Source: Candidatus Bathyarchaeota archaeon (GTDB lineage: Archaea; Thermoproteota; Bathyarchaeia; 40CM-2-53-6). From it: DNA of 64,000 bases. A program made the position numbers and the translations under genes. The stretch covers positions 448,001 through 512,000 of the forward strand of contig CAVSBL010000002.1 of the NCBI GenBank assembly GCA_963726255.1, read 5' to 3'. Below are positions 2,945 through 60,096 of this stretch, in pieces; position 1 is the stretch's first letter; each line of letters opens with the position of its first letter. Below the pieces are notes generated by a model that saw nothing but the letters and a program-made list of their open reading frames with translations, was not told where the DNA came from and made no database searches.

Positions 2945-3164
2945 CCCGAAGCAAACTCGGACACGAAGAGACTATTTCTGGATGTCCACTCATTGCCGGC
3001 AGCGATTTCGAACGTAAAAGAACCGGGCAATGCGGGCTCTGTTCGGTTTATGGCTGTTCGTGTCGGTTGTTCGGCATCGGCGGATGTTTATTCAGAGTTT
3101 TTCATGTCACGCGCCCACATTATACTATATAGTCTTCGAATGAGAAGTAACAGGGAGAGGAAAC

Positions 3165-9210: not shown

Positions 9211-10125
9211 TTAGAAGCCGAAGTATTCGTCTGGAATGAATTTTGCATCCGGGTCGATGCATCTTTTGATCAGGTCCATCGGCAGGAAGCAATTCTCTTC
9301 TTCAAAGAACTCAGCTTCGAACTCCCTTCGAAACCGGTCTCGGGGAATCCTACGCCGCATCTCCTCAACGAAATCAGTTGTGGTTAGGCCAGCTTTGATT
9401 ACGTCGTCGATGCTGATCTTGTGGACCTTGAAGGCTGGGTCTTGTGTGAACTGGTAGAAGACCGAGTTCTTTACCCAGGGTGTGGATGAGGCGATTAATG
9501 TGCCCTGGGTGGTTTGGAGCATGGGAAAGAGCACGCTGTAGAACATCGTCTCGTCATCACGAAAGAAGGCGCACTCGTCGCAGATGCATTGATTTGCGCT
9601 GTAACCCCGCAGCAAGTTCGTGGAGCAGGGCAGAGCGATGATTTGCGAGCCATTCTTGAACCATATGACAGTTCGCTGTATCTTCCCGATGTACTCTCTG
9701 CGAATTGGTCGGGGCATAGCCATCAGGAAGGAGTGGACCCGGTCCATCATGATCATGCTTTGCCGAAACCCAGGGGCGACGATGAGCGTCACGGTCTTGG
9801 AGTTTCTGCATGCGAACCAGATGGCCCTAGCTGCGATCGTCATGGACTTTCCCGATTGCCGTGGGTAAATGACAACGATTCGCTTCCCTGTCTCCCGGAG
9901 AAGCTTGGCTTGGTATTCGGCCGGATTGAATTTCAACGCCTTCTGAGCGAAAAGAACAGGGTCCTCAAGGTCCTGTTCCGAAAGCTGCTCAAATGGTGAT
10001 GAGCCTTCTCCAGGATCCTTCCCTGCGACGATCCTCTCGAAGGCTATTCTACGCCTTTCCTGTAGCCGTTTTTGCTTGTTCTTCGAGCTGTCTGGTAGCT
10101 TCCTCAAATGCCCTCTGCTCCTCAC
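9211..10125 (-). CDS. Terminase large-subunit-like ATPase domain (no nuclease domain)
   Basis: YQ motif, Walker A PRQSGKS, Walker B ICDECAF, motif III ASSTP, FRREFEAEF. Confidence 0.85.
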   Translation of the reverse strand: MRSRGHLRKLPDSSKNKQKRLQERRRIAFERIVAGKDPGEGSSPFEQLSEQDLEDPVLFAQKALKFNPAEYQAKLLRETGKRIVVIYPRQSGKSMTIAARAIWFACRNSKTVTLIVAPGFRQSMIMMDRVHSFLMAMPRPIRREYIGKIQRTVIWFKNGSQIIALPCSTNLLRGYSANQCICDECAFFRDDETMFYSVLFPMLQTTQGTLIASSTPWVKNSVFYQFTQDPAFKVHKISIDDVIKAGLTTTDFVEEMRRRIPRDRFRREFEAEFFEEENCFLPMDLIKRCIDPDAKFIPDEYFGF

Positions 10126-45265: not shown

Positions 45266-45748
45266 AACGCGAGAGGTTCGAGTTACAATTACCTTTCGTC
45301 TTTAACGGGTTCTTGGTTTAGGCGGGTTGACGGCGTCCTCGAAACCCTTCAGTCCGAGGCCGGCTAGGAACGATTCTGCAATCAACGCGTTTGACGGGAG
45401 AATTGCATAGTCTCGCAATTACCTCCACACTTGCACCTGGGCGCTGCTTCAACTCGGAGGATCAACTTCCTAGCAACCGTCAACATAGAATCCAACACAG
45501 TGTCCCCACCAGGCGTCAAACTGACCGCGCAGAGATTCACATGTCTAATGCAATCATAAGAACCACGGTGACGAAAACCGGTCACCCAGAAACCCCAAGG
45601 AAAGTAAAGTACTTGTGGTCCATGATGACAGTTGCCAGTGACTCATTTGCGCGCCTTTGCCTGCATTTTCATTCTACACTCTCGACGAAGATGAACGCTT
45701 TTCCTCTATAACAGGGTCTAAACAGGGCATTTTGTTGAGGCTTGGACT

Positions 45749-46099
45749 GTGGGTCGAACTATACCTTCTTGGCGTATGGTCGTCGTCGGAGAGCTTGAGA
45801 GGTTGAAGAGATTTCGCCAGTTTCCAAGGTCCGAGGACAAGGAGATCTTCGACGACCTCCTCAATCGATGCAGGTTGTATGCTTCATACGGTAGCACGAT
45901 GGCTTTACCCGTGAAGGAGATTCCACGCTTAATGCCAGTGCTGTTCGGCCAACACAAGCGACTTGGATTTGGAAAGAAGCATCAAATCGATGGAATCATA
46001 AGGTGGCGCGATTTGCGGCAGGATGGCGTCCTTAGGCTGCCCCGATCTGAGAGTACCCTCAACCTGTTTAGGATTGGAATCTTCTTAAGCATAGCTTGA
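45749..46099 (+). CDS. Conserved small archaeal protein (MGRTIPS family), C-terminus probably degraded
   Basis: MGRTIPSWR..EDKEIFDDLL..CRLYAS. Confidence 0.55.
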   Translation: MGRTIPSWRMVVVGELERLKRFRQFPRSEDKEIFDDLLNRCRLYASYGSTMALPVKEIPRLMPVLFGQHKRLGFGKKHQIDGIIRWRDLRQDGVLRLPRSESTLNLFRIGIFLSIA

Positions 46100-46166: not shown

Positions 46167-46592
46167 GTGCCAAGACTTGCATTACCTGACAAAGAAACTT
46201 CCAGTCGGATGAGAAAGGTAAGGAGCCGAGGTACCGGTCTTGAGAAAGCAATGCAAGAAATTCTCGAGAGTATAAGCGTGGAATACGAGGCACAACCTAA
46301 TCTGGTTGGGCATCCAGACTTTAGAATAAAGGGAGAAAGAGTTCTGGTCTTTTGCGACAGCTCATTTTGGCACGGCAGACGAAAGGAAGACGTCAGCGGT
46401 CTGACTTTTCACAGAAATAAGGCATTTTGGTCGCGGAAACTTGCCGCTACCAGACGACGAGATCGCATTCTCACTCGAAGGCTAATTGAAGATGGATGGA
46501 CGGTGTTGCGTTTCTGGGATTCAGAGATTCTTCAACGAAGGGATTTTGTTAGAAACAGGCTGAGGAGAGCAGTGCATGCAGAAAACCACTAA
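46167..46592 (+). CDS. vsr: Very-short-patch repair endonuclease
   Basis: MRKVRSRGT, GHPDF, FWHG, GWTVLRFW. Confidence 0.93.
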   Translation: MPRLALPDKETSSRMRKVRSRGTGLEKAMQEILESISVEYEAQPNLVGHPDFRIKGERVLVFCDSSFWHGRRKEDVSGLTFHRNKAFWSRKLAATRRRDRILTRRLIEDGWTVLRFWDSEILQRRDFVRNRLRRAVHAENH

Positions 46593-47676
46593 ACCGCTTA
46601 CCGCAGTTGATGTGTTTTGCGGAGCAGGTGGCTTAACGCTTGGCTTGAAGCAAGCAGGTTTCCACGTAGTGGCTGGGGTCGAGATCAACAAGGAATATGC
46701 GAAAACGTACCTGGCGAATCATCCAGAAGTGAAAGTCTTTACACGAGACGTAAGAGAGGTTAAGGGCAAAGAGATTCTTGAAGCCACTGGGGTCGATTCC
46801 GTAGACCTTCTCGCGGGGTGCCCGCCATGCGAAGGATTCTCGAAACTTACTGACAAGTATCACAGGGATGACCCGAGAAACGAACTTGTTCTAGAGATGG
46901 CTCGGCTAATAGAAGAAATCAAACCCAAAGCTGTGATGATGGAAAATGTAGCGGGTCTAGCTAGAAGGGGAAAGCCGAAACTGGATCAATTCGTAAGGAA
47001 GCTTACCTCATTAGGATATTCTGTGAATTATGACGTGCTGCAATTGGCGAACTACGGTGTTCCGCAATCGCGTCGCAGACTTGTCTTGTTCGCAGGCATG
47101 GGATTCGTGATATTGCCACCAAAGAAAACCAGAGCTTACCGAGAAGATCGTGCCAAGGGGCTGAAACGTTGGATGTGGCTTGAAGATTTCTTGCCCAACC
47201 TTGGAAGGCCAGTAACGCTTTCGAAAGCAATGAAGAACGGTGGGCCGAGAAGGTTCAATTGGCATGTGGTGAGAGACATTGAGGAGATGACGAAAAAGCG
47301 GCTGAGAGCAGTCAAGACTGGCCGTGCTAGAGATTCGCTTCCAAAGGATCTGAGACCTGAGTGCCACACGGATTCGTCTTACGATGGATTCGGAAACGTC
47401 TATGGAAGACTTTCATGGAAGAGCACGCCACCGACGATCACAGGCGGATGTACCACCTTTTGCAAGGGGAGGTTCGGTCACCCAACGCAGTTGAGAACCA
47501 TTTCAGTGCGAGAAGCCGCCCTAATACAGACCTTCCCTCGCACGTATAAGCTCGAGACGGACTGCATGGACATGGTCTGCGATTTAGTCGGCAATGCTTT
47601 CCCTCCGAAGTTCGCGAAGCTTGCTGCAATCGAGTGTTTGAACGTGATTCAAAGTCAGGAGAGGCCTATTCGATGA
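46576..47676 (+). CDS. DNA (cytosine-5)-methyltransferase
   Basis: DVFCGAGG, GCPPCEGFS, ENV, QSRRR, GNAFPP. Confidence 0.95.
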   Translation: MQKTTKPLTAVDVFCGAGGLTLGLKQAGFHVVAGVEINKEYAKTYLANHPEVKVFTRDVREVKGKEILEATGVDSVDLLAGCPPCEGFSKLTDKYHRDDPRNELVLEMARLIEEIKPKAVMMENVAGLARRGKPKLDQFVRKLTSLGYSVNYDVLQLANYGVPQSRRRLVLFAGMGFVILPPKKTRAYREDRAKGLKRWMWLEDFLPNLGRPVTLSKAMKNGGPRRFNWHVVRDIEEMTKKRLRAVKTGRARDSLPKDLRPECHTDSSYDGFGNVYGRLSWKSTPPTITGGCTTFCKGRFGHPTQLRTISVREAALIQTFPRTYKLETDCMDMVCDLVGNAFPPKFAKLAAIECLNVIQSQERPIR

Positions 47677-49559
47677 TTCGAAAATTCACCATGGAATTCG
47701 AACCTGCCACAATAGAGCATTTGGGCTTGAAGCTGTACGTTTCACTACCACCCGTAATTGGTGAATTGGTATCCAATGCGTGGGATGCTGATGCGGAAAA
47801 AGTCGAAGTGAGTTTTCCAAGCGGACCTTTGAACGCAGAATCCGAGGTAATCGTACAAGATTTCGGATCTGGAATGGACGCAGATGAGTTGCAAGACGCC
47901 TATTTGAAAATAGGCAGAAACCGCAGAGAAGTCGACGGATTCGAAATTACTAAGAAATTCAATCGCCCCATAATGGGTCGGAAAGGAATCGGCAAGCTTT
48001 CGGTATTTGGCGTGGCTTCAGAACTTGAGATAAGGAGCATCAAGAATCACAACGCGACTTGTCTGCGGCTGAACTACGATAATATGAAATCTTGGCCGAG
48101 AGGAACGCCGTACGAACCCAAAGTCGTGGAGTCTAGAACTGGTCCGACCGACGAAACAAATGGAACCGAGATCAGAATTAGGGAGCTCCACAGAAAGAAA
48201 GCTATCGAGGCTGACTGGATCCGTCGAGAGCTGGCTAGACGCTACACAGTCATCGGAAACGATTTCAAGGTTTTAGTGAACGGCACCGAGATAACCCCTA
48301 AGGACAGACGACTGCAAGAGGACTGCAGGAAATCTTGGGATGTCGCAGATATCAAAGGAGGCAACGTGATAGACGAATCGGCGGGTTGGAAAGTCGATGG
48401 GTGGATTGGCCTGGTGGCAAAGTCGTCGCAAGTCGATAGAGGAGTTGATGTTTTTGCCAGAGGAAAGGCTGTTGAACTTGAGACGATGTTTGGACTCAAG
48501 ACGACTACGATTCAATTTGCTAGGGCATACGTGGTGGGTGAAATAACTGCAGACTTCCTGGACGCAGCCGAAGACGACATTGCGACAGGAAGAAACTTGG
48601 TTCATTGGGAGTCGGATCGAGGCCAGAAGCTTGCCATTTGGGGGCAGACGGCCCTGAAGTGGGTTTTCAACCAGTGGCTTGACTTGCAACATAAGGAGAA
48701 AGAGGAGAGAGTCATCAGAATAGCTGGATTCAGAGAATGGATGTCTACGAGGACCCCGCGGGAGCAGAAAGTCGCTCAAAAGTTGGTTAATGCAATAGTG
48801 AATGATGAGAACATCGAACCAGAATCAGCTGGGCCGCTCCTCGAAATAGTCAAGACGAATGTGGAGTTTCAAGCCTTTCAGGAATTGGTAGACGAGATTG
48901 AGGAATCCGGAGCCAATGTAGCGACACTGCTCAAGTTATTCCAGGACTGGCGCGTTATCGAGGCCCGTGAATACTTACGACTTGCCGATGGACGACTGGA
49001 GATAATGGAGAAACTCTCCGAACACATCGAAAAGGGCGCAATGGAAGTCAAACAGATTCAGCCCCTGTTCGAAGAGCACGGCTGGCTGGTCGACCCAAGC
49101 TGGAAAAACGTTTCCGGTCAAACGCGATATACAAAGCTCTTGCGGGAGAACTGCGCAGAGCCCAAGGCGCTCGACGAAAAAGACAGAAGGATAGACATTC
49201 TAGGGTACTCTGTGAGCGGTATTCTACATGTCGTGGAATTGAAACGTCCGGATAAAACGCTGGCTCGCGAGGATTTGGAACAGGTTGAGAGATACGTTGA
49301 TTGGGCAAGAGCGAACCTCCTTGGTACGGGCGAAGGAACACCCAACTATGCTCGTGGGTTATTGATTGTCGGGAGATTGAGCAAGGATGCTGCAATTCAA
49401 AGAAAGATGGAAAGACTCGCGGGAGACCACATTTTGGTAGATACTTTCGATGGGCTTCTGGACAGAGCCGAGAAGATCTACGGATTGGACGAACAGACGT
49501 TGCGAAATATAGCCCCAGAATACTCGAAACAAGCTAGAAGAGCTAGGGCAAAAAACTAG
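47673..49559 (+). CDS. GHKL/MORC-type ATPase fused to a C-terminal PD-(D/E)xK nuclease (R-M restriction component)
   Basis: ELVSNAWDA, DFGSGM, GRKGIGK, GTEI; RIDIL..VELKRP; ATG overlaps the MTase stop. Confidence 0.88.
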   Translation: MIRKFTMEFEPATIEHLGLKLYVSLPPVIGELVSNAWDADAEKVEVSFPSGPLNAESEVIVQDFGSGMDADELQDAYLKIGRNRREVDGFEITKKFNRPIMGRKGIGKLSVFGVASELEIRSIKNHNATCLRLNYDNMKSWPRGTPYEPKVVESRTGPTDETNGTEIRIRELHRKKAIEADWIRRELARRYTVIGNDFKVLVNGTEITPKDRRLQEDCRKSWDVADIKGGNVIDESAGWKVDGWIGLVAKSSQVDRGVDVFARGKAVELETMFGLKTTTIQFARAYVVGEITADFLDAAEDDIATGRNLVHWESDRGQKLAIWGQTALKWVFNQWLDLQHKEKEERVIRIAGFREWMSTRTPREQKVAQKLVNAIVNDENIEPESAGPLLEIVKTNVEFQAFQELVDEIEESGANVATLLKLFQDWRVIEAREYLRLADGRLEIMEKLSEHIEKGAMEVKQIQPLFEEHGWLVDPSWKNVSGQTRYTKLLRENCAEPKALDEKDRRIDILGYSVSGILHVVELKRPDKTLAREDLEQVERYVDWARANLLGTGEGTPNYARGLLIVGRLSKDAAIQRKMERLAGDHILVDTFDGLLDRAEKIYGLDEQTLRNIAPEYSKQARRARAKN

Positions 49560-54049: not shown

Positions 54050-56268
54050 CTACGCTTCCATGAAGTCTTCTGCCTTTTGTGGTTCAGGTGGTAGGCCCTT
54101 GCGTTCGCGTATGCCCGTGATGACCTGGTTGATCAACGATTGCGGTACAGGTGCCCAGTGGGCGAACTCCAACCCCCAGAATGCCCGGCCTTGAGAAGCG
54201 CCCCGCATAACCTCTGAGAGGTCAAAGCTCTCAGCTGTGGGCAACTCCCCTACTACATAGACGAGGTGCCCGCGCTGGTCTACTGAAACGATTTTCCCAC
54301 GTTTCTGCGAGATTACACTTGTTGCGGCTCCAAGTAGCTCTGGGGGTACCTTCACCGTGATTCTTTGGACTGGTTCCAGCAGAACTGGGTTTGCGCTGAG
54401 GAATGCGACGAAGAATGCCCTTCTACTCATTGGCATGATCTGCGCTGGGCCTCTGTGGACGGGGTCTTCATGGAGTGAAATGTCCGTAACCTTCACCTTC
54501 ACGCCTCGGATTTGCTCATACGCAAGTGGGCCTTCCTTGAGTCCCCAACGGTAACCTGCAATAACCATTTCCTTAACCTCTTGGACGTACTGGGCTCCTT
54601 TCGTCACTTCCACAAGCATGTTGCTCCCTTCGTCAACGCTCCAAACCCCACGGGCTTCGTCGGGGGGCCATCCTTCCTCGCGAAGTATCTTTGCCATTTC
54701 GTGGCGGTCTTGGTATTCTCCAATCTTGCCCTCTTTGAGCATGCTGATTATCTTGTCAGGTAGAGGCTCGACGGAGAGGTAGATCTTGTTGTGTTTGTTT
54801 GGCGATTTGCCTTCCACAGGGCCGGCGGTGCCTCTGATGCTTTCGCGGTAGATTACGATCGGTTTGGAGGTTACGATTTCCAAACCGGTTTTCGTTATCA
54901 GCGTGTTAGCTATTTCCAAGTGCAGTGTGCCCATTCCGGCTATGAGGTACTCGCCGGTTTCTTCGTTGATCTTCGTCACGAGGTTTGGGTCTTCGAGGCT
55001 AAGCCTGCGGAGTAGCTCCACGAGCTTAGGAAGGTCCCTGCTGTATTTCGGTTCGACTGCCATCGTAACTACGGGTTCCGTAACGTAATGGACGGCTTCG
55101 AAGGGTGCTATGTCCTTTATCGTCGACAGTGTTTCTCCGGCCTTTGCTGCATCGAGCCCTAGGAGGGCGGGGATGTTGCCAGCGCTTATTGTCCCCACGA
55201 TTTCGCGGTAGGGCCCCATGAATATGCATACTTGCTGAACCCTTTGGTCCACCCTCGCGCCAAGTAGGTGGAAGGTTGATCCTTCCGTGATTGTTCCTGA
55301 GAATAATCTTCCACTGGCAACTACTCCTGCCTGCGGGTCAACCACAATGTTCGTAATCGCCATGACCACGGGACCGTTGTCGTCACAATTCATCATAGCT
55401 TTGCCGACTTCGCTGTCTATGTTCCCCTTCCAAATCTTCGGAATCCGATACTTCTGTGCCACATGTGGCGGGGGCAAATGCTCCACGGCCATGTTGAGGA
55501 TGGCATCGTCAAGCGAGGCCCGCTCTCTTAGTTCGCTTACCTTTTCGTTCAGGTAGGCGTCGACGACATCTGAGAATTTGACATTCTTCTCCTTCGCAAT
55601 TTCCGCGTTGAAACCCCATCGGTCCTTGGCCGAACCCATGGCTACAGTGTTGGTTGCGAAGCTTACCTTCCATATCTCACGGTACTCGGGCTCAGCGTAG
55701 AGCTCGATGAGGCGGTTAAACTCGGTGATTATGCGCCCGATTCTCTCCTGAATCTGCTCGGGGGACAGTCTCAATTCCTTGATGAGGCGGTCAATCTTGT
55801 TAATGTAAAGCAAAGGCCGAACACGTTCCTCAAGCGCCTGCCTCGTCACCGTCTCCGTCTGAACCATAATCTCCTCAACAGAATCCACAACTACAACTGC
55901 GCCGTCAATCGCCCTAAGCGAGCGAGTCACTCTTCCTGAGAAGTCAACGTGGCCGGGGGTGTCGATTAGGTTGATGACGTAGGGGGTACCATTCCTCTCA
56001 TGGAGTAGGCTCACGTTCGCGGCCTTGATGGTCATCTGCCGCTTTTGCTCTTCTTCCATGTAGTCTAGGGCTAGTGCTGTCCCAGCCATGCCTGGTGACA
56101 GAAGGCCAGCAGCCGCAAGGAGGGAGTCGCTCATCGTCGTCTTGCCGTGGTCGACGTGGGCGATTATACCCATATCTTCCGGACGCAGCAACTAGGCTAC
56201 GTCATTCGGATTTGGTCCTTGTTAGCTATGATCCTCTGTATTTCCGTCGTAGATTTGTAACGGGGCAT
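54050..56268 (-). CDS. fusA: Elongation factor EF-2; exon 1 56205-56268, exon 2 54050-56175 (729 aa spliced)
   Basis: AHVDHGKT, DTPGH, NKID, diphthamide loop HEDPVHRGPAQ; the N-terminus MPRYKSTTEIQRIIANKDQIR-N joins only after intron removal. Confidence 0.95.
56176..56204 (-). other. 29-nt BHB-type pre-mRNA intron in EF-2
   Basis: A TCCG AA|T GACGTAGC CTAGTT GCTGCGTC CGGA AG|A T; contains an in-frame TAG. Confidence 0.88.
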
Positions 56269-56734: not shown

Positions 56735-57778
56735 TTGGGTTTCAACCTCTCCCCGCTCGTTGTTAAGCGGCAGCTGCGGTTGGATGACCTGAAGGGGCGA
56801 AGCCTCGCCGTTGACGCCAACAATATGCTCTACCAATTCCTCGCGCTAATCCGCATGCGGGACGGAAGGCCATTCACCGACTCGAAGGGCAACGTTACTT
56901 CGCACTTGGTTGGATTACTTCTTCGCACGACGCGTTTGATGGCAGATTATGGGATACGCCCAGTGTTCGTTTTTGATGGGAAGCCACCTGCGATGAAGAT
57001 GCGGACCTTGGAAGCACGGCGCCAGTACAGGGAAAAGGCGCGGAAGGAGTGGGAAACGGCTGTCCAACGCGGCGACTACTCAGCGGCTTGGTCGAAAGCG
57101 GTAAGGATGAACTCGCTGACGCAACCGATGCAAGAGGATGCTAGGAAACTGCTCGGGCTGCTTGGCGTCCCTTACGTTCAAGCCCCGCAAGAGGGTGAGG
57201 CTCAGGCTGCCCACATGGCGTCCAAGGGTGATGTCTGGGCTGCGAATAGCCGGGACTATGACTCTGTACTTTTCGGTGCTCCTCGGCTAGTTCGGTATGT
57301 AACGATATCTGGGCAAGAATTCTTGCCAAGCAAAGGAATCGCCCGCCCGCTCATACCTGAACTAATTGAACTTAACCAACTCCTGACGGCGCTAGGAATA
57401 ACTCGAGAGCAACTGATCGACCTAGCCATCCTAGTAGGGACCGACTTTAACCAAGGAGTTCGGGGAGTCGGACCTAAAACAGCCCTGAAACTCATCAGGG
57501 AACATGGAGGTCTTGAGAAACTGCCGGACCGATTCAAAACTCAGCTTCCTAACAACATTCAAGCGATACGCACAATCTTCCTCCACCCAGATGTAAGGGA
57601 GGATTACGAGATTCAATTCAAAGGCATGGACGAAGAAGGCCTCAGGAAATTCCTCTGCGAAGAACGTGGGTTCTCCCCAGATAGGGTCAATCTCGCAATT
57701 GAACGAATGCGAGCATTCTACGCCAAAGACCGTTCAACCCTCCAAAGCTGGCTAGGGGGCAACCAAGGAGGAGCATGA
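56735..57778 (+). CDS. fen: Flap endonuclease 1
   Basis: AVDANNMLYQFL, EGEAQA, DYDSVLFG, GTDFN, C-terminal PIP box QSWL. Confidence 0.96.
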   Translation: MGFNLSPLVVKRQLRLDDLKGRSLAVDANNMLYQFLALIRMRDGRPFTDSKGNVTSHLVGLLLRTTRLMADYGIRPVFVFDGKPPAMKMRTLEARRQYREKARKEWETAVQRGDYSAAWSKAVRMNSLTQPMQEDARKLLGLLGVPYVQAPQEGEAQAAHMASKGDVWAANSRDYDSVLFGAPRLVRYVTISGQEFLPSKGIARPLIPELIELNQLLTALGITREQLIDLAILVGTDFNQGVRGVGPKTALKLIREHGGLEKLPDRFKTQLPNNIQAIRTIFLHPDVREDYEIQFKGMDEEGLRKFLCEERGFSPDRVNLAIERMRAFYAKDRSTLQSWLGGNQGGA

Positions 57779-59377
57779 TTGCCGCCGGAGACTTCGTTTA
57801 ACCGGTTTACAGAAGTCTGCAAAGCGTTAGAGTCTACTACGAAAAGGACAGAGAAAGTAGCCTACCTAGTGGACTTCCTGAAATCCCTAAGCCGCGAAGA
57901 AATCACACCAGCCGTCTCCTTCCTAGTTGGTCGGCCTTTTCCCGAATCCGATGAGCGGGCGCTCGATATCGGAGGACAGACGCTTTGGAAGATTAATCGC
58001 GGAAGCGGCCAATCTGCCTTAATCTCAAAACCTGTAACAATCCTAGAGGTCTACAGAACCTTCGAGAAGATAGCGACCGCAAGTGGGTCAGGTTCGCGAC
58101 AGAGAAAGGAGACGCTTGTAGACACATTACTCAGCCGGCTTCCCAGAGCCGACGCCGAGTATTTGATGCGGATTATCTTCGGAGAGATGCGCATAGGCGC
58201 CGTAGAGGGCGTCGTCCTAGACGCAATAGCCCAAGCCGCATCCATCAACCCTGAGCGAGTTCGTAGGGCTAACATGCTCATGGGAAACCTCGCCCAAGTT
58301 GCCGAACTGGCACTCACGAAGGGCCAGGAAGCCATCAAGGACGTGGGCGTGACTCTGTTCGTTCCCATCAAGCCTATGCTCGCGGAGATGGCACAAGATC
58401 TTCAGGAGGTTTTCAAAGAACACGGGGGGACAAGCGCCTTCGAATTCAAGTATGACGGTGCACGCATCCAAATTCACCGGAAGGACGGCACACTCAGAAT
58501 TTTCAGCAGAAGGCTAACCGACGTCACATTAAGCCTGCCGGACATAGTCGAGCTCGCAAGGAAACGCGTTCGTAGTGAGGAATTTCTAATCGAGGGCGAA
58601 GTGGTTGCAACCGGCCAGAATCAGAAGCCCCTTCCATTTCAGGATTTGATGAGGCGATTCAGGCGTGTACACGACGTTGACGTGATGCTGAAGGAAATTC
58701 CGCTCAAACTCTTCCTATTCGACGTCATCTATCTCGACGGAAACCTCCTGATTGATACTCCATACGAAAAAAGGTGGGAGACGCTCCGCATCGTAGTCGA
58801 CGAGCAACTACTGGCTACAAGGATCGTTACGAAAGACTTGGTTGAGGCGAAGAAGTTGATGCAAGCCTCAATCGAGGCAGGGCACGAGGGGCTGATGGCG
58901 AAGGACCTCAAGAGCAACTATGCGCCCGGTGTCCGAGGAAAGAAGTGGTTCAAGATCAAGCCCGCGGAAACATTGGACGTGGTCATCGTGGCTGCGGATT
59001 GGGGTTCCGGGAGAAGGCGGGGCTGGTTAAGTAATTATCATCTCGCCGTGCGGGACGAGGCGTCGGGAGAATTTCTAGTGGTCGGTAAGACCTTCAAAGG
59101 CCTCACCGACCAAGAATTCGTTGAAATCACAAAGAGATTGCTAGAGTTGAAGACTAAGGAAACAGATTACACCGTATATGTGAAGCCGTCGATTGTCGTT
59201 GAGGTAGCCTTCAACGAGATTCAACATAGCCCACACTACAAATCCGGGTTTGCCCTTCGCTTTGCGAGAATCGCTCGGTTCAGGGATGATAAACGGGTTG
59301 GGGACGCGGACACACTGCAAAGGCTCTCAAAGCTCTACCAGGACCAGTTCAGGTTCAAAGCTCCCGCAGAGTTCTAA
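57779..59377 (+). CDS. lig: ATP-dependent DNA ligase
   Basis: EFKYDGAR, EGEVV, HEGLMAK, ALRFARI. Confidence 0.96.
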   Translation: MPPETSFNRFTEVCKALESTTKRTEKVAYLVDFLKSLSREEITPAVSFLVGRPFPESDERALDIGGQTLWKINRGSGQSALISKPVTILEVYRTFEKIATASGSGSRQRKETLVDTLLSRLPRADAEYLMRIIFGEMRIGAVEGVVLDAIAQAASINPERVRRANMLMGNLAQVAELALTKGQEAIKDVGVTLFVPIKPMLAEMAQDLQEVFKEHGGTSAFEFKYDGARIQIHRKDGTLRIFSRRLTDVTLSLPDIVELARKRVRSEEFLIEGEVVATGQNQKPLPFQDLMRRFRRVHDVDVMLKEIPLKLFLFDVIYLDGNLLIDTPYEKRWETLRIVVDEQLLATRIVTKDLVEAKKLMQASIEAGHEGLMAKDLKSNYAPGVRGKKWFKIKPAETLDVVIVAADWGSGRRRGWLSNYHLAVRDEASGEFLVVGKTFKGLTDQEFVEITKRLLELKTKETDYTVYVKPSIVVEVAFNEIQHSPHYKSGFALRFARIARFRDDKRVGDADTLQRLSKLYQDQFRFKAPAEF

Positions 59378-59412: not shown

Positions 59413-60096
59413 TTGAAGGTCGCAGTTCTCTTCAGCGGCGGCAAAGACAGCGCATTCGCACTATGGTGTGTCCAAATGCAGGGCTGGGACGTGGAAAGCC
59501 TACTCACCGTCATTCCAGAATCCCAAGAATCTTGGATGTTTCACTTTCCCGGCCTAACTTGGACCAAGCTGCAGGCCCAAGCCATGAGCCTACCACAACT
59601 AACCGTTAAGACCCGTGGTGAAAAAGAACGGGAATTAACCGATCTTGCCGACGGCCTTGAGCAACTCAAGAAATCATTAGGCATCGACACGGTGGTTTCA
59701 GGCGCGGTCGCAAGCGAATATCAGAGAACTCGAATCGACAACGTGTGCGAGACGCTCGGACTCAAGAGTATTGCCCCCCTCTGGCACAAGAACCAAGAAC
59801 AACTAGTTAGGGAGCAGATAGAATCCGGCTTTCAGATCATGGTAACAGCGTGCAACGCGCTCGGCCTTACCAAGGAGTGGCTGGGTAAGAAACTCGACGC
59901 CTCGGACTTGCCTAGACTGGTCGCCCTCCGAAAAAAGTACGGCCTTAATGTGGCATTCGAAGGGGGCGAAGCTGAAACCTTCGTCCTAGCCGCACCCATG
60001 TTCAAAGTGCCCCTTACCGTTGTTCGGTCCACGCCGCGTTGGCGTGACGATTCGGGGTACTTGGAGATAGAAGAAGTTCAGCTAGGCCCTCGGTAA
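59413..60096 (+). CDS. dph6: Diphthine--ammonia ligase (Dph6 family)
   Basis: FSGGKDS, SWMFH, SEYQ, EGGEAET. Confidence 0.88.
   Translation: MKVAVLFSGGKDSAFALWCVQMQGWDVESLLTVIPESQESWMFHFPGLTWTKLQAQAMSLPQLTVKTRGEKERELTDLADGLEQLKKSLGIDTVVSGAVASEYQRTRIDNVCETLGLKSIAPLWHKNQEQLVREQIESGFQIMVTACNALGLTKEWLGKKLDASDLPRLVALRKKYGLNVAFEGGEAETFVLAAPMFKVPLTVVRSTPRWRDDSGYLEIEEVQLGPR

Follow-up and report, generated by a model that had tools for sequence, protein, structure and literature searches.

The stretch analysed here, called the window, is 64,000 nucleotides (nt) of a soil archaeon of the class Bathyarchaeia, Candidatus Bathyarchaeota archaeon (GenBank assembly GCA_963726255.1, contig CAVSBL010000002.1, positions 448,001 to 512,000), and the subject of this work is the gene for elongation factor 2 (EF-2) on its minus strand, in which codon 22 is very probably interrupted by a 29-nt intron of the bulge-helix-bulge (BHB) type. 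All positions given for the gene and its intron are on that strand. From an ATG at 56268-56266, 21 EF-2-like codons can be read (MPRYKSTTEIQRIIANKDQIR), after which the frame continues with Met, Thr and a TAG at 56199-56197; the open reading frame (ORF) listing records the whole as 23 amino acids (aa) at 56197..56268. The long EF-2 ORF is listed at 54050..56191 with 713 aa; it starts at a TTG located within the 29-nt insert (MLRPEDMGIIAH) and its translation begins MLRPEDMGIIAHVDHGKT. The short and the long frame are mutually offset, and 29 nt separate them. A first-pass annotation of this DNA had described the ATG at 56268, an EF-2-like N-terminus ended by a TAG two codons further on and a 23-aa product, and both the minus-strand reading and the ORF listing bear this out.

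When 56204..56176 is excised, the two parts join into a 2190-nt frame of 729 codons plus stop with no internal stops, which is the 729-aa EF-2 that the same annotation expected from removal of the 29 nt. Exon 1 (56205..56268) comprises the start codon, 21 codons in all (MPRYK...DQIR) and the first base of the Asn-22 codon; exon 2 (54050..56175) runs from the last two bases of that codon to the stop and carries the P-loop AHVDHGKT and domains II-V. The Asn-22 codon is therefore complete only once the exons are joined, and the junction reads ...IRN|MG.... The intron site lies inside codon 22, 64 nt into the coding sequence and slightly upstream of the P-loop, and the predicted tryptic peptide that starts at the junction Asn is, in the window lineage, NMGIIAHVDHGK. 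Pfam models matching the EF-2 ORF are GTP_EFTU (4.9e-47), GTP_EFTU_D2, EFG_III, EFG_IV and EFG_C, so that the GTPase domain with its P-loop and domains II, III, IV and V are all accounted for.

The insert and its flanks were folded as the minimum free energy (MFE) structure of 56225..56160. In this structure a central 4-bp helix is formed between TCCG (56207..56210), the last full bases of exon 1, and CGGA (56178..56181), which lies within the intron. The helix is bounded by two 3-nt bulges on opposite strands, AAT at 56204..56206 and AGA at 56175..56177, and on the intron side it is followed by a hairpin, h' (56182..56203), whose arms (56203-56196/56189-56182) make 8 bp including one G-U and enclose a 6-nt loop (56195-56190). 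Two 3-nt opposite-strand bulges 4 bp apart together with an intron-side helix h' and an exon-side helix h are what characterises a BHB. The entire element, including a weak 3-bp exon-exon outer helix (56215-56213/56172-56170), occupies 56170..56215. With the canonical cut taken as that after the second base of each 3-nt bulge, the 5' splice site falls between 56205 and 56204 and the 3' splice site between 56176 and 56175, which releases 56176..56204; the in-frame TAG (56197..56199) that terminates unspliced translation after 23 residues is within the released piece. The MFE fold is identical to the BHB drawn in the first-pass annotation in its helix (TCCG/CGGA), its 3-nt bulges, its 8-bp stem and all its coordinates.

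Relatives of the gene were collected in one scan of a species-representative genome collection with the EF-2 protein. This gave 69 loci (designated by L numbers), whose EF-2 shares 44-99% identity with that of the window; most come from metagenome-assembled genomes (MAGs) under the label Bathyarchaeia or Bathyarchaeota. The P-loop was located in each locus and the sequence upstream of it was read; 62 of the 69 were assessable, the 5' end being missing in L003, L020, L023, L024, L027, L030 and L045. An insert at the window's exact position is found in the window and in 44 of the 62 loci (43 plus L011), down to an EF-2 identity of about 62%. In all 45 sequences exon 1 ends with an Arg codon plus A and exon 2 opens with AT or AC, and canonical cuts made in silico restore IRN-x-G followed by IIAH or VIAH in every case. 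The central helix and the two 3-nt bulges are also present in 45/45, as TCCG/CGGA, TCCG/CGGG, TTCG/CGAA or TTCG/CGAG. The introns are 25-44 nt long, with 19 of length 1 mod 3, 13 of 2 mod 3 and 13 of 0 mod 3, and the codon after the junction Asn is ATG in 17, ATT in 10, ATC in 9, ATA in 6 and TTT in 3. The remaining 18 loci (13 plus L021, L022, L036, L057 and L029) are intron-less and read directly IRNxG. Among them are the near relatives L025 and L043, at 77-79% identity, and also Methanocaldococcus and loci with the label Woesearchaeota; they look like precise deletions of the insert.

Two other irregularities among the loci were rejected as introns. A 117-nt excision candidate in L054 was spurious, the insert of this locus being a 32-nt BHB, and the two frame changes in L014 (L014:3001-5120) come from single bases inserted at two places when compared with L006, in all likelihood indel errors of the assembly. 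Three loci with the same intron (L001, L016 and L035) come from MAGs with bacterial names (Acidiferrales, Methylomirabilota and Acidoferrum), and their EF-2 is archaeal and 90-92% identical to that of the window; these contigs are probably archaeal and mis-binned. On L001, about 1.2 kb downstream of EF-2, ARAGORN places a tRNA-Gly(CCC) of 102 nt (L001:6370-6471, plus strand), the excess length of which suggests an intron, possibly outside the anticodon loop.

To score the structure shared by the inserts, the 45 elements, each with 12 and 8 bases of flank, were placed in a MAFFT alignment anchored at both ends, and its 43 distinct rows were used. In the central helix 100% of cells are paired, and its variation consists of one pair changed from C-G to U-A in 4 rows and a neighbouring U-A changed to U-G in 4 rows. 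In the intron stem, read in a fixed register, 79.9% of cells are paired, and changes on both sides are seen in 7 of its 8 pairs. Stem pair 1 is G-C in all 43 distinct sequences, and pairs 2-4 are maintained through exchanges between AU, GC, GU, UA and CG; pair 2, for example, is A-U in 20, G-C in 16 and G-U in 4, and pair 4 is G-C in 26, U-A in 5, C-G in 4 and A-U in 1. The covariation score is 0.227 as against 0.125 +/- 0.009 in shuffled alignments, reached in 0 of 500, and 58 cells show both-side changes compared with 17.3 in the shuffles. When the 3' partners were slid by 1-3 columns, pairing was at most 52.6% and the score at most 0.105. Furthermore, with the alignment as its only input, RNAalifold predicts precisely the central helix and, after a gap of 3 columns, stem pairs 1-4. 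Alignment with relatives had been named in the earlier annotation as the way to look for intron-less alleles or covarying stems, and both are found, the former in 18 loci and the latter in these helices.

A stop codon is a further constant feature of the inserts. The frame of exon 1 meets a stop inside the intron in all 45 sequences (TAG in 41, TGA in 4), at an identical offset in 44 of them. In L059, L061 and L063 the three columns that hold TAG elsewhere read TGA; in L048 the shared offset lacks a stop, and the frame ends at a TGA nine bases later. The stop columns are at least 90% conserved, though 17-20 of the 43 rows are unpaired at the pairs concerned, and we read this as suggesting that the stop is selected for as such. 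The stop would matter most for the 13 introns whose length is 0 mod 3, since read-through of these would add 9-12 residues before the P-loop.

Several observations weigh against the interpretation of the insert as a BHB intron. The fold of the window element, at -18 kcal/mol, has a z of only -1.97 relative to dinucleotide shuffles, 8 of 200 of which fold equally well. A strict BHB pattern was defined by a 4-bp helix in which two or more pairs are G-C, a stem of 6 or more pairs in a row, an outer helix with three or more of its four pairs formed and an intron no longer than 70 nt. Counting both strands, the window has 25 matches to it and 10 locally shuffled copies have 14-32 each; loose criteria give hundreds of matches. 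Across the relatives the exon-exon outer helix is weak, with 53.1% of cells paired; its pattern is A-U, mismatch, A-U and then C-G pairs in a portion of the sequences, and it looks relaxed. When each sequence was folded singly with 20 nt on either side, the central helix was present in the MFE structure of 37/45 and the full motif in 31/45; the remaining 14 are able to form the motif, but rival folds compete with it. The sequences are related to one another, and the shuffle controls of the covariation analysis consequently overstate significance and are not probabilities; a fairer guide is given by the slid controls and by how many distinct pair types occur. Finally, a Pfam scan of 38 of the 42 window ORFs that reach 150 aa showed no endA or rtcB gene, which would encode the tRNA-splicing endonuclease EndA and the ligase RtcB.

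Since BHB scans succeed as often in shuffled sequence, it is clear that shape alone is unable to find such introns, and because the shape is within chance the case must rest on comparison with relatives. What goes beyond chance is the exact frame-restoring position of the element and its conservation with covariation in 45 sequences. In addition, among the 25 strict sites in the window, the EF-2 site is the only one at which a short open stretch (23 codons) would be joined to a long one (707 codons). Another BHB-like site, at 45709..45742 on the plus strand, joins 126 + 118 open codons; it was dropped as probably due to chance because its stem is rich in A-U and G-U and the flanking ORFs (45391-45711 and 45749-46099) have no Pfam match.

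Four other explanations were considered, and even when combined they hold only a small share of the probability. Ribosomes might simply begin at an internal start (the TTG at 56191 or the ATG at 56173) and make a truncated EF-2, the upstream 21 codons being a leader peptide or a relic. A 713-aa ORF does start from the TTG within the insert, and in the window an ATG stands directly after the junction. However, the codon at that place is ATG in only 17/45, which excludes a conserved internal start. Moreover, exon 1 is conserved as protein, with change mostly at third positions: per site, pairs of sequences differ on average by 0.223 at the first, 0.163 at the second and 0.454 at the third codon position, the third being about twice as variable as the others, and exon 1 evolves in the manner of coding sequence, under purifying selection. 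Its residues 1-21 in the window match those of the intron-less EF-2 of L043 without gaps (13/21 identical), and solved EF-2 chains align to the L043 query from residue 4-10 on (for 8hl1, at 2.3e-264, query residue 10 corresponds to chain residue 4). An internal start is therefore very unlikely. Alternatively, the ribosome could pass over the insert by bypass or frameshift, and RNA splicing would be unneeded. Programmed bypass is known from phage T4 gene 60, and the insert has a superficial resemblance to such a signal, as it is short, starts near a stop and holds a hairpin. No single frameshift would suffice for lengths that span all three mod-3 classes, however, and neither frameshifting nor read-through can explain all of them, as removal at the RNA level can. 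The invariant Asn codon, with one base from exon 1 and two from exon 2, arises only when the exons are joined, and a conserved and covarying 3-4-3 BHB geometry is not needed for bypass. We regard this explanation as highly improbable.

The insert might also be removed from the RNA by machinery other than EndA and RtcB, for example by a different structure-specific nuclease or by self-cleavage, and the outer helix is indeed weaker than in the strict hBHBh' motif. Yet the features that are conserved are those that EndA measures, and the productive cut is after the second bulge base in 45/45. According to a review (PMC4033280), no enzyme other than EndA is known to act on the BHB motifs of tRNA, rRNA and mRNA. 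A length of 25-44 nt is, besides, far below the size of group I or II ribozymes, and the involvement of other machinery is extremely unlikely. A sequencing or assembly artefact, or a decaying pseudogene, has the least to recommend it. It is true that MAG assemblies hold indel errors, as the two insertions in L014 relative to L006 illustrate, but an assembly artefact is excluded because 44 loci, drawn from numerous independent assemblies of different kinds, have the insert, and its structure covaries. In addition, exon 2 is an intact full-length EF-2 with all its Pfam domains, and exon 1 is under purifying selection. The probability of this explanation is close to nil.

The best explanation of the whole is then that codon 22 of EF-2 contains a 29-nt BHB intron that is spliced from the pre-mRNA, and we hold this with high confidence. 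This had been the central proposal of the first-pass annotation, and it is strongly supported by the sharing of the site among 45 sequences, the intron-less alleles, the restoration of frame and the compensatory changes. Because an insert with compensatory changes occupies the same spot in many relatives, the message almost certainly must be cut and rejoined for EF-2 to be made. EndA is known to recognise a pair of 3-nt bulges 4 bp apart and to cut in them; ligation of the exons and closure of the intron into a circle are the work of RtcB. By analogy with this established BHB biology, the EF-2 pre-mRNA would fold locally into a 4-bp helix between two 3-nt bulges, capped by the intron hairpin; EndA would cut after the second base of each bulge; and RtcB would join the exons and probably circularise the 29-mer. 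The spliced mRNA would then yield a normal 729-aa EF-2 with ...IRN|MG... at the junction, and unspliced RNA would yield only the 23-residue peptide, because an in-frame stop is kept in the intron. The further idea in that annotation, of a switch that couples EF-2 supply to tRNA-processing capacity, is speculation: the conserved stop and the position of the intron are compatible with a switch and fit simple damage limitation equally.

One relative, L029, from a MAG labelled Nitrososphaeria, lacks the intron at the site described above (site A) and carries another 29-nt BHB intron at a second site (site B), at L029:2970-2998 on the plus strand, inside the Lys codon of the P-loop GKT. Its fold is a BHB with a 13-bp exon-exon helix at -34.1 kcal/mol (z -8.58, 0/200 shuffles). 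Canonical cuts here give a 730-aa EF-2 with an intact AHVDHGKTT, and the unspliced frame meets a TGA two codons into the intron. By its sequence this is an independent second BHB intron, and it supports the splicing of EF-2 pre-mRNA. The P-loop is also the site of inteins. A C-terminal intein end, HN|T, is found at the P-loop in L011, L020, L021, L022, L036 and L057, with the 5' end of L020 missing, and an open intein from K|C to HN|T lies between the P-loop Lys and Thr in L011, L021, L022, L036 and L057. The intein is 539 aa long in L021, L022, L036 and L057 and 608 aa in L011, starts with Cys and ends with His-Asn, and the C-extein starts at locus position 3001. The intein site is one base from the intron site of L029, and in L011 the site-A intron and the intein occur together.

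The distribution of the site-A intron was placed on an EF-2 tree of 60 rows (a quick method, LG+G4), from which rows below 500 aa (L014, L019 and L057) were dropped and whose root was placed on the five rows with the label Methanocaldococcus, Woesearchaeota or Methanosarcinales. A single clade of 51 rows (SH-aLRT 99) takes in all 43 rows that bear the intron, and the distribution needs at least 4 changes, compared with a shuffled mean of 15.1. The intron-less rows within the clade are the group L025/L021/L022/L036, L043, L029 and the pair L028/L033 (the basal position of which is unsettled). This fits one old gain followed by precise losses, as described for cbf5, the count of changes being itself blind to gain versus loss. 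A covariance model built from the 45 introns and searched over 545,436 bases (the window plus the loci) at E up to 1 found no further copies of the element; it matched just the 45 known ones and also missed the site-B intron of L029. There is thus no sign of a dispersed repeat.

The nearest known case is the intron of cbf5 in Crenarchaeota, where the splicing of a BHB intron within coding sequence depends on EndA and the cuts fall between the second and third bulge residues, according to PMC2738675 (Yokobori 2009); Watanabe 2002 and Yoshinari 2006 are the earlier papers on this intron. As described there, cbf5 resembles EF-2 in having a small intron without an ORF of its own in coding sequence at a functionally critical codon, with a BHB-type fold and the same position of cutting, and in a patchy distribution with gain and precise loss. 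The cbf5 gene, however, encodes a pseudouridine synthase, and its lineage is Desulfurococcales/Sulfolobales as opposed to Bathyarchaeia. Most cbf5 introns are described, in the text available, as unconventional or relaxed BHBs, whereas the 3-4-3 core is canonical in 45/45 EF-2 introns; a stop in every intron and a second insertion site in one relative also set EF-2 apart from cbf5. Splicing of cbf5 was proven by cDNA and in vitro cleavage, and that of EF-2 is predicted here from DNA sequence. The EF-2 element does not belong to the cbf5-intron family, as its host gene is EF-2 and its site is not the cbf5 catalytic-Asp codon; the two would only work alike. Haloferax volcanii provides another mRNA substrate of the archaeal splicing endonuclease, the HVO_1309 intron, which in the accessible text of PMC7714728 is verified in vivo and in vitro; it lies in a 5' untranslated region (UTR), unlike the EF-2 intron, which is in the reading frame. 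As the HVO_1309 intron is in an untranslated leader, it does not decide whether the protein is made.

In archaeal tRNA and rRNA, BHB introns have the same recognition geometry and the same presumed enzymes as the EF-2 intron. They differ from it in that the EF-2 host is a messenger, with an exon-exon helix that is drawn from coding sequence and is weak. In the eukaryotic HAC1/XBP1 system a protein endonuclease and a tRNA-type ligase remove an mRNA intron as a stress switch. This system (IRE1 plus tRNA ligase), which is named in the accessible portion of PMC13149111, is alike in that a short mRNA intron alters the translation of what lies downstream. It differs in its unrelated nuclease and motif and in being a proven stress switch, whereas regulation of EF-2 is conjecture; the relationship is one of analogy, not homology.

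A full-text literature search, to which subscription journals and bioRxiv supplements are external, turned up nothing on BHB introns in EF-2; the sole coding-sequence case that it brought to light is cbf5, and this agrees with the statement of the first-pass annotation that no EF-2 case is in print. In the accessible text of PMC7714728 (2020), the mRNA BHB cases are the cbf5 intron and the Haloferax 5'-UTR case of that study only. The reference list of a 2025 EndA structure paper, as far as it is accessible, cites cbf5 papers alone for protein-coding introns, and the available text of a paper on EF-2 evolution that covers Bathyarchaeota EF-2 (PMC6143161) does not mention an intron in the gene. 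What appears to be new is the probable cbf5-type mechanism in an essential new host gene and a new lineage, together with a canonical core, a constant stop, a second site and co-occurrence with an intein.

As to the surroundings of the gene, three ORFs run divergently from EF-2 on the plus strand between 56735 and 60096: the flap endonuclease Fen1 (56735-57778), an ATP-dependent DNA ligase (57779-59377) and Dph6 (59413-60096). Dph6, the diphthamide synthase, completes the diphthamide modification that is specific to EF-2. Elsewhere in the window a Vsr-like mismatch endonuclease, a C-5 cytosine DNA methylase and a GHKL-ATPase (HATPase_c_3) protein stand in a row at 46167-49559 (plus strand), in what looks like a modification or defence cluster. 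An ORF at 9211-10125 (minus strand) matches the N-terminal domain of a T4-type terminase large subunit and is a possible viral remnant. ARAGORN and Rfam scans of the window gave no hits.

Taken jointly, the observations also permit a wider reading, which we consider rather unlikely: that EF-2 synthesis is gated by the tRNA-splicing machinery across an uncultured archaeal class and that the P-loop stretch is a recurrent landing site for mobile elements. The gating part follows from the 5'-proximal intron that always contains an in-frame stop, which would act as a HAC1/XBP1-like checkpoint on EndA/RtcB capacity or on RNA folding conditions. The landing-site part follows from the two independent BHB sites and the intein at the same Lys/Thr position. 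This reading, if true, implies present or past mobility of BHB introns in protein-coding genes, and further ones hidden in Bathyarchaeia as seemingly truncated ORFs.

A second host gene for such an intron, one that is essential, a universal phylogenetic marker and present in an abundant uncultured lineage, would mean that mRNA splicing by the tRNA machinery is no one-off. In practical terms, gene callers would place the EF-2 start within the intron or beyond it, at the cost of about 22 N-terminal residues, and as a consequence of these miscalled starts marker-gene sets for Bathyarchaeia and EF-2 phylogenies would use truncated proteins. The 45 variants and the intron-less alleles constitute a natural experiment on what EndA needs in an mRNA, on splicing in relation to coupled translation and on the retention of the stop. 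Furthermore, the second site and the P-loop intein raise the question of intron mobility in the protein genes of archaea.

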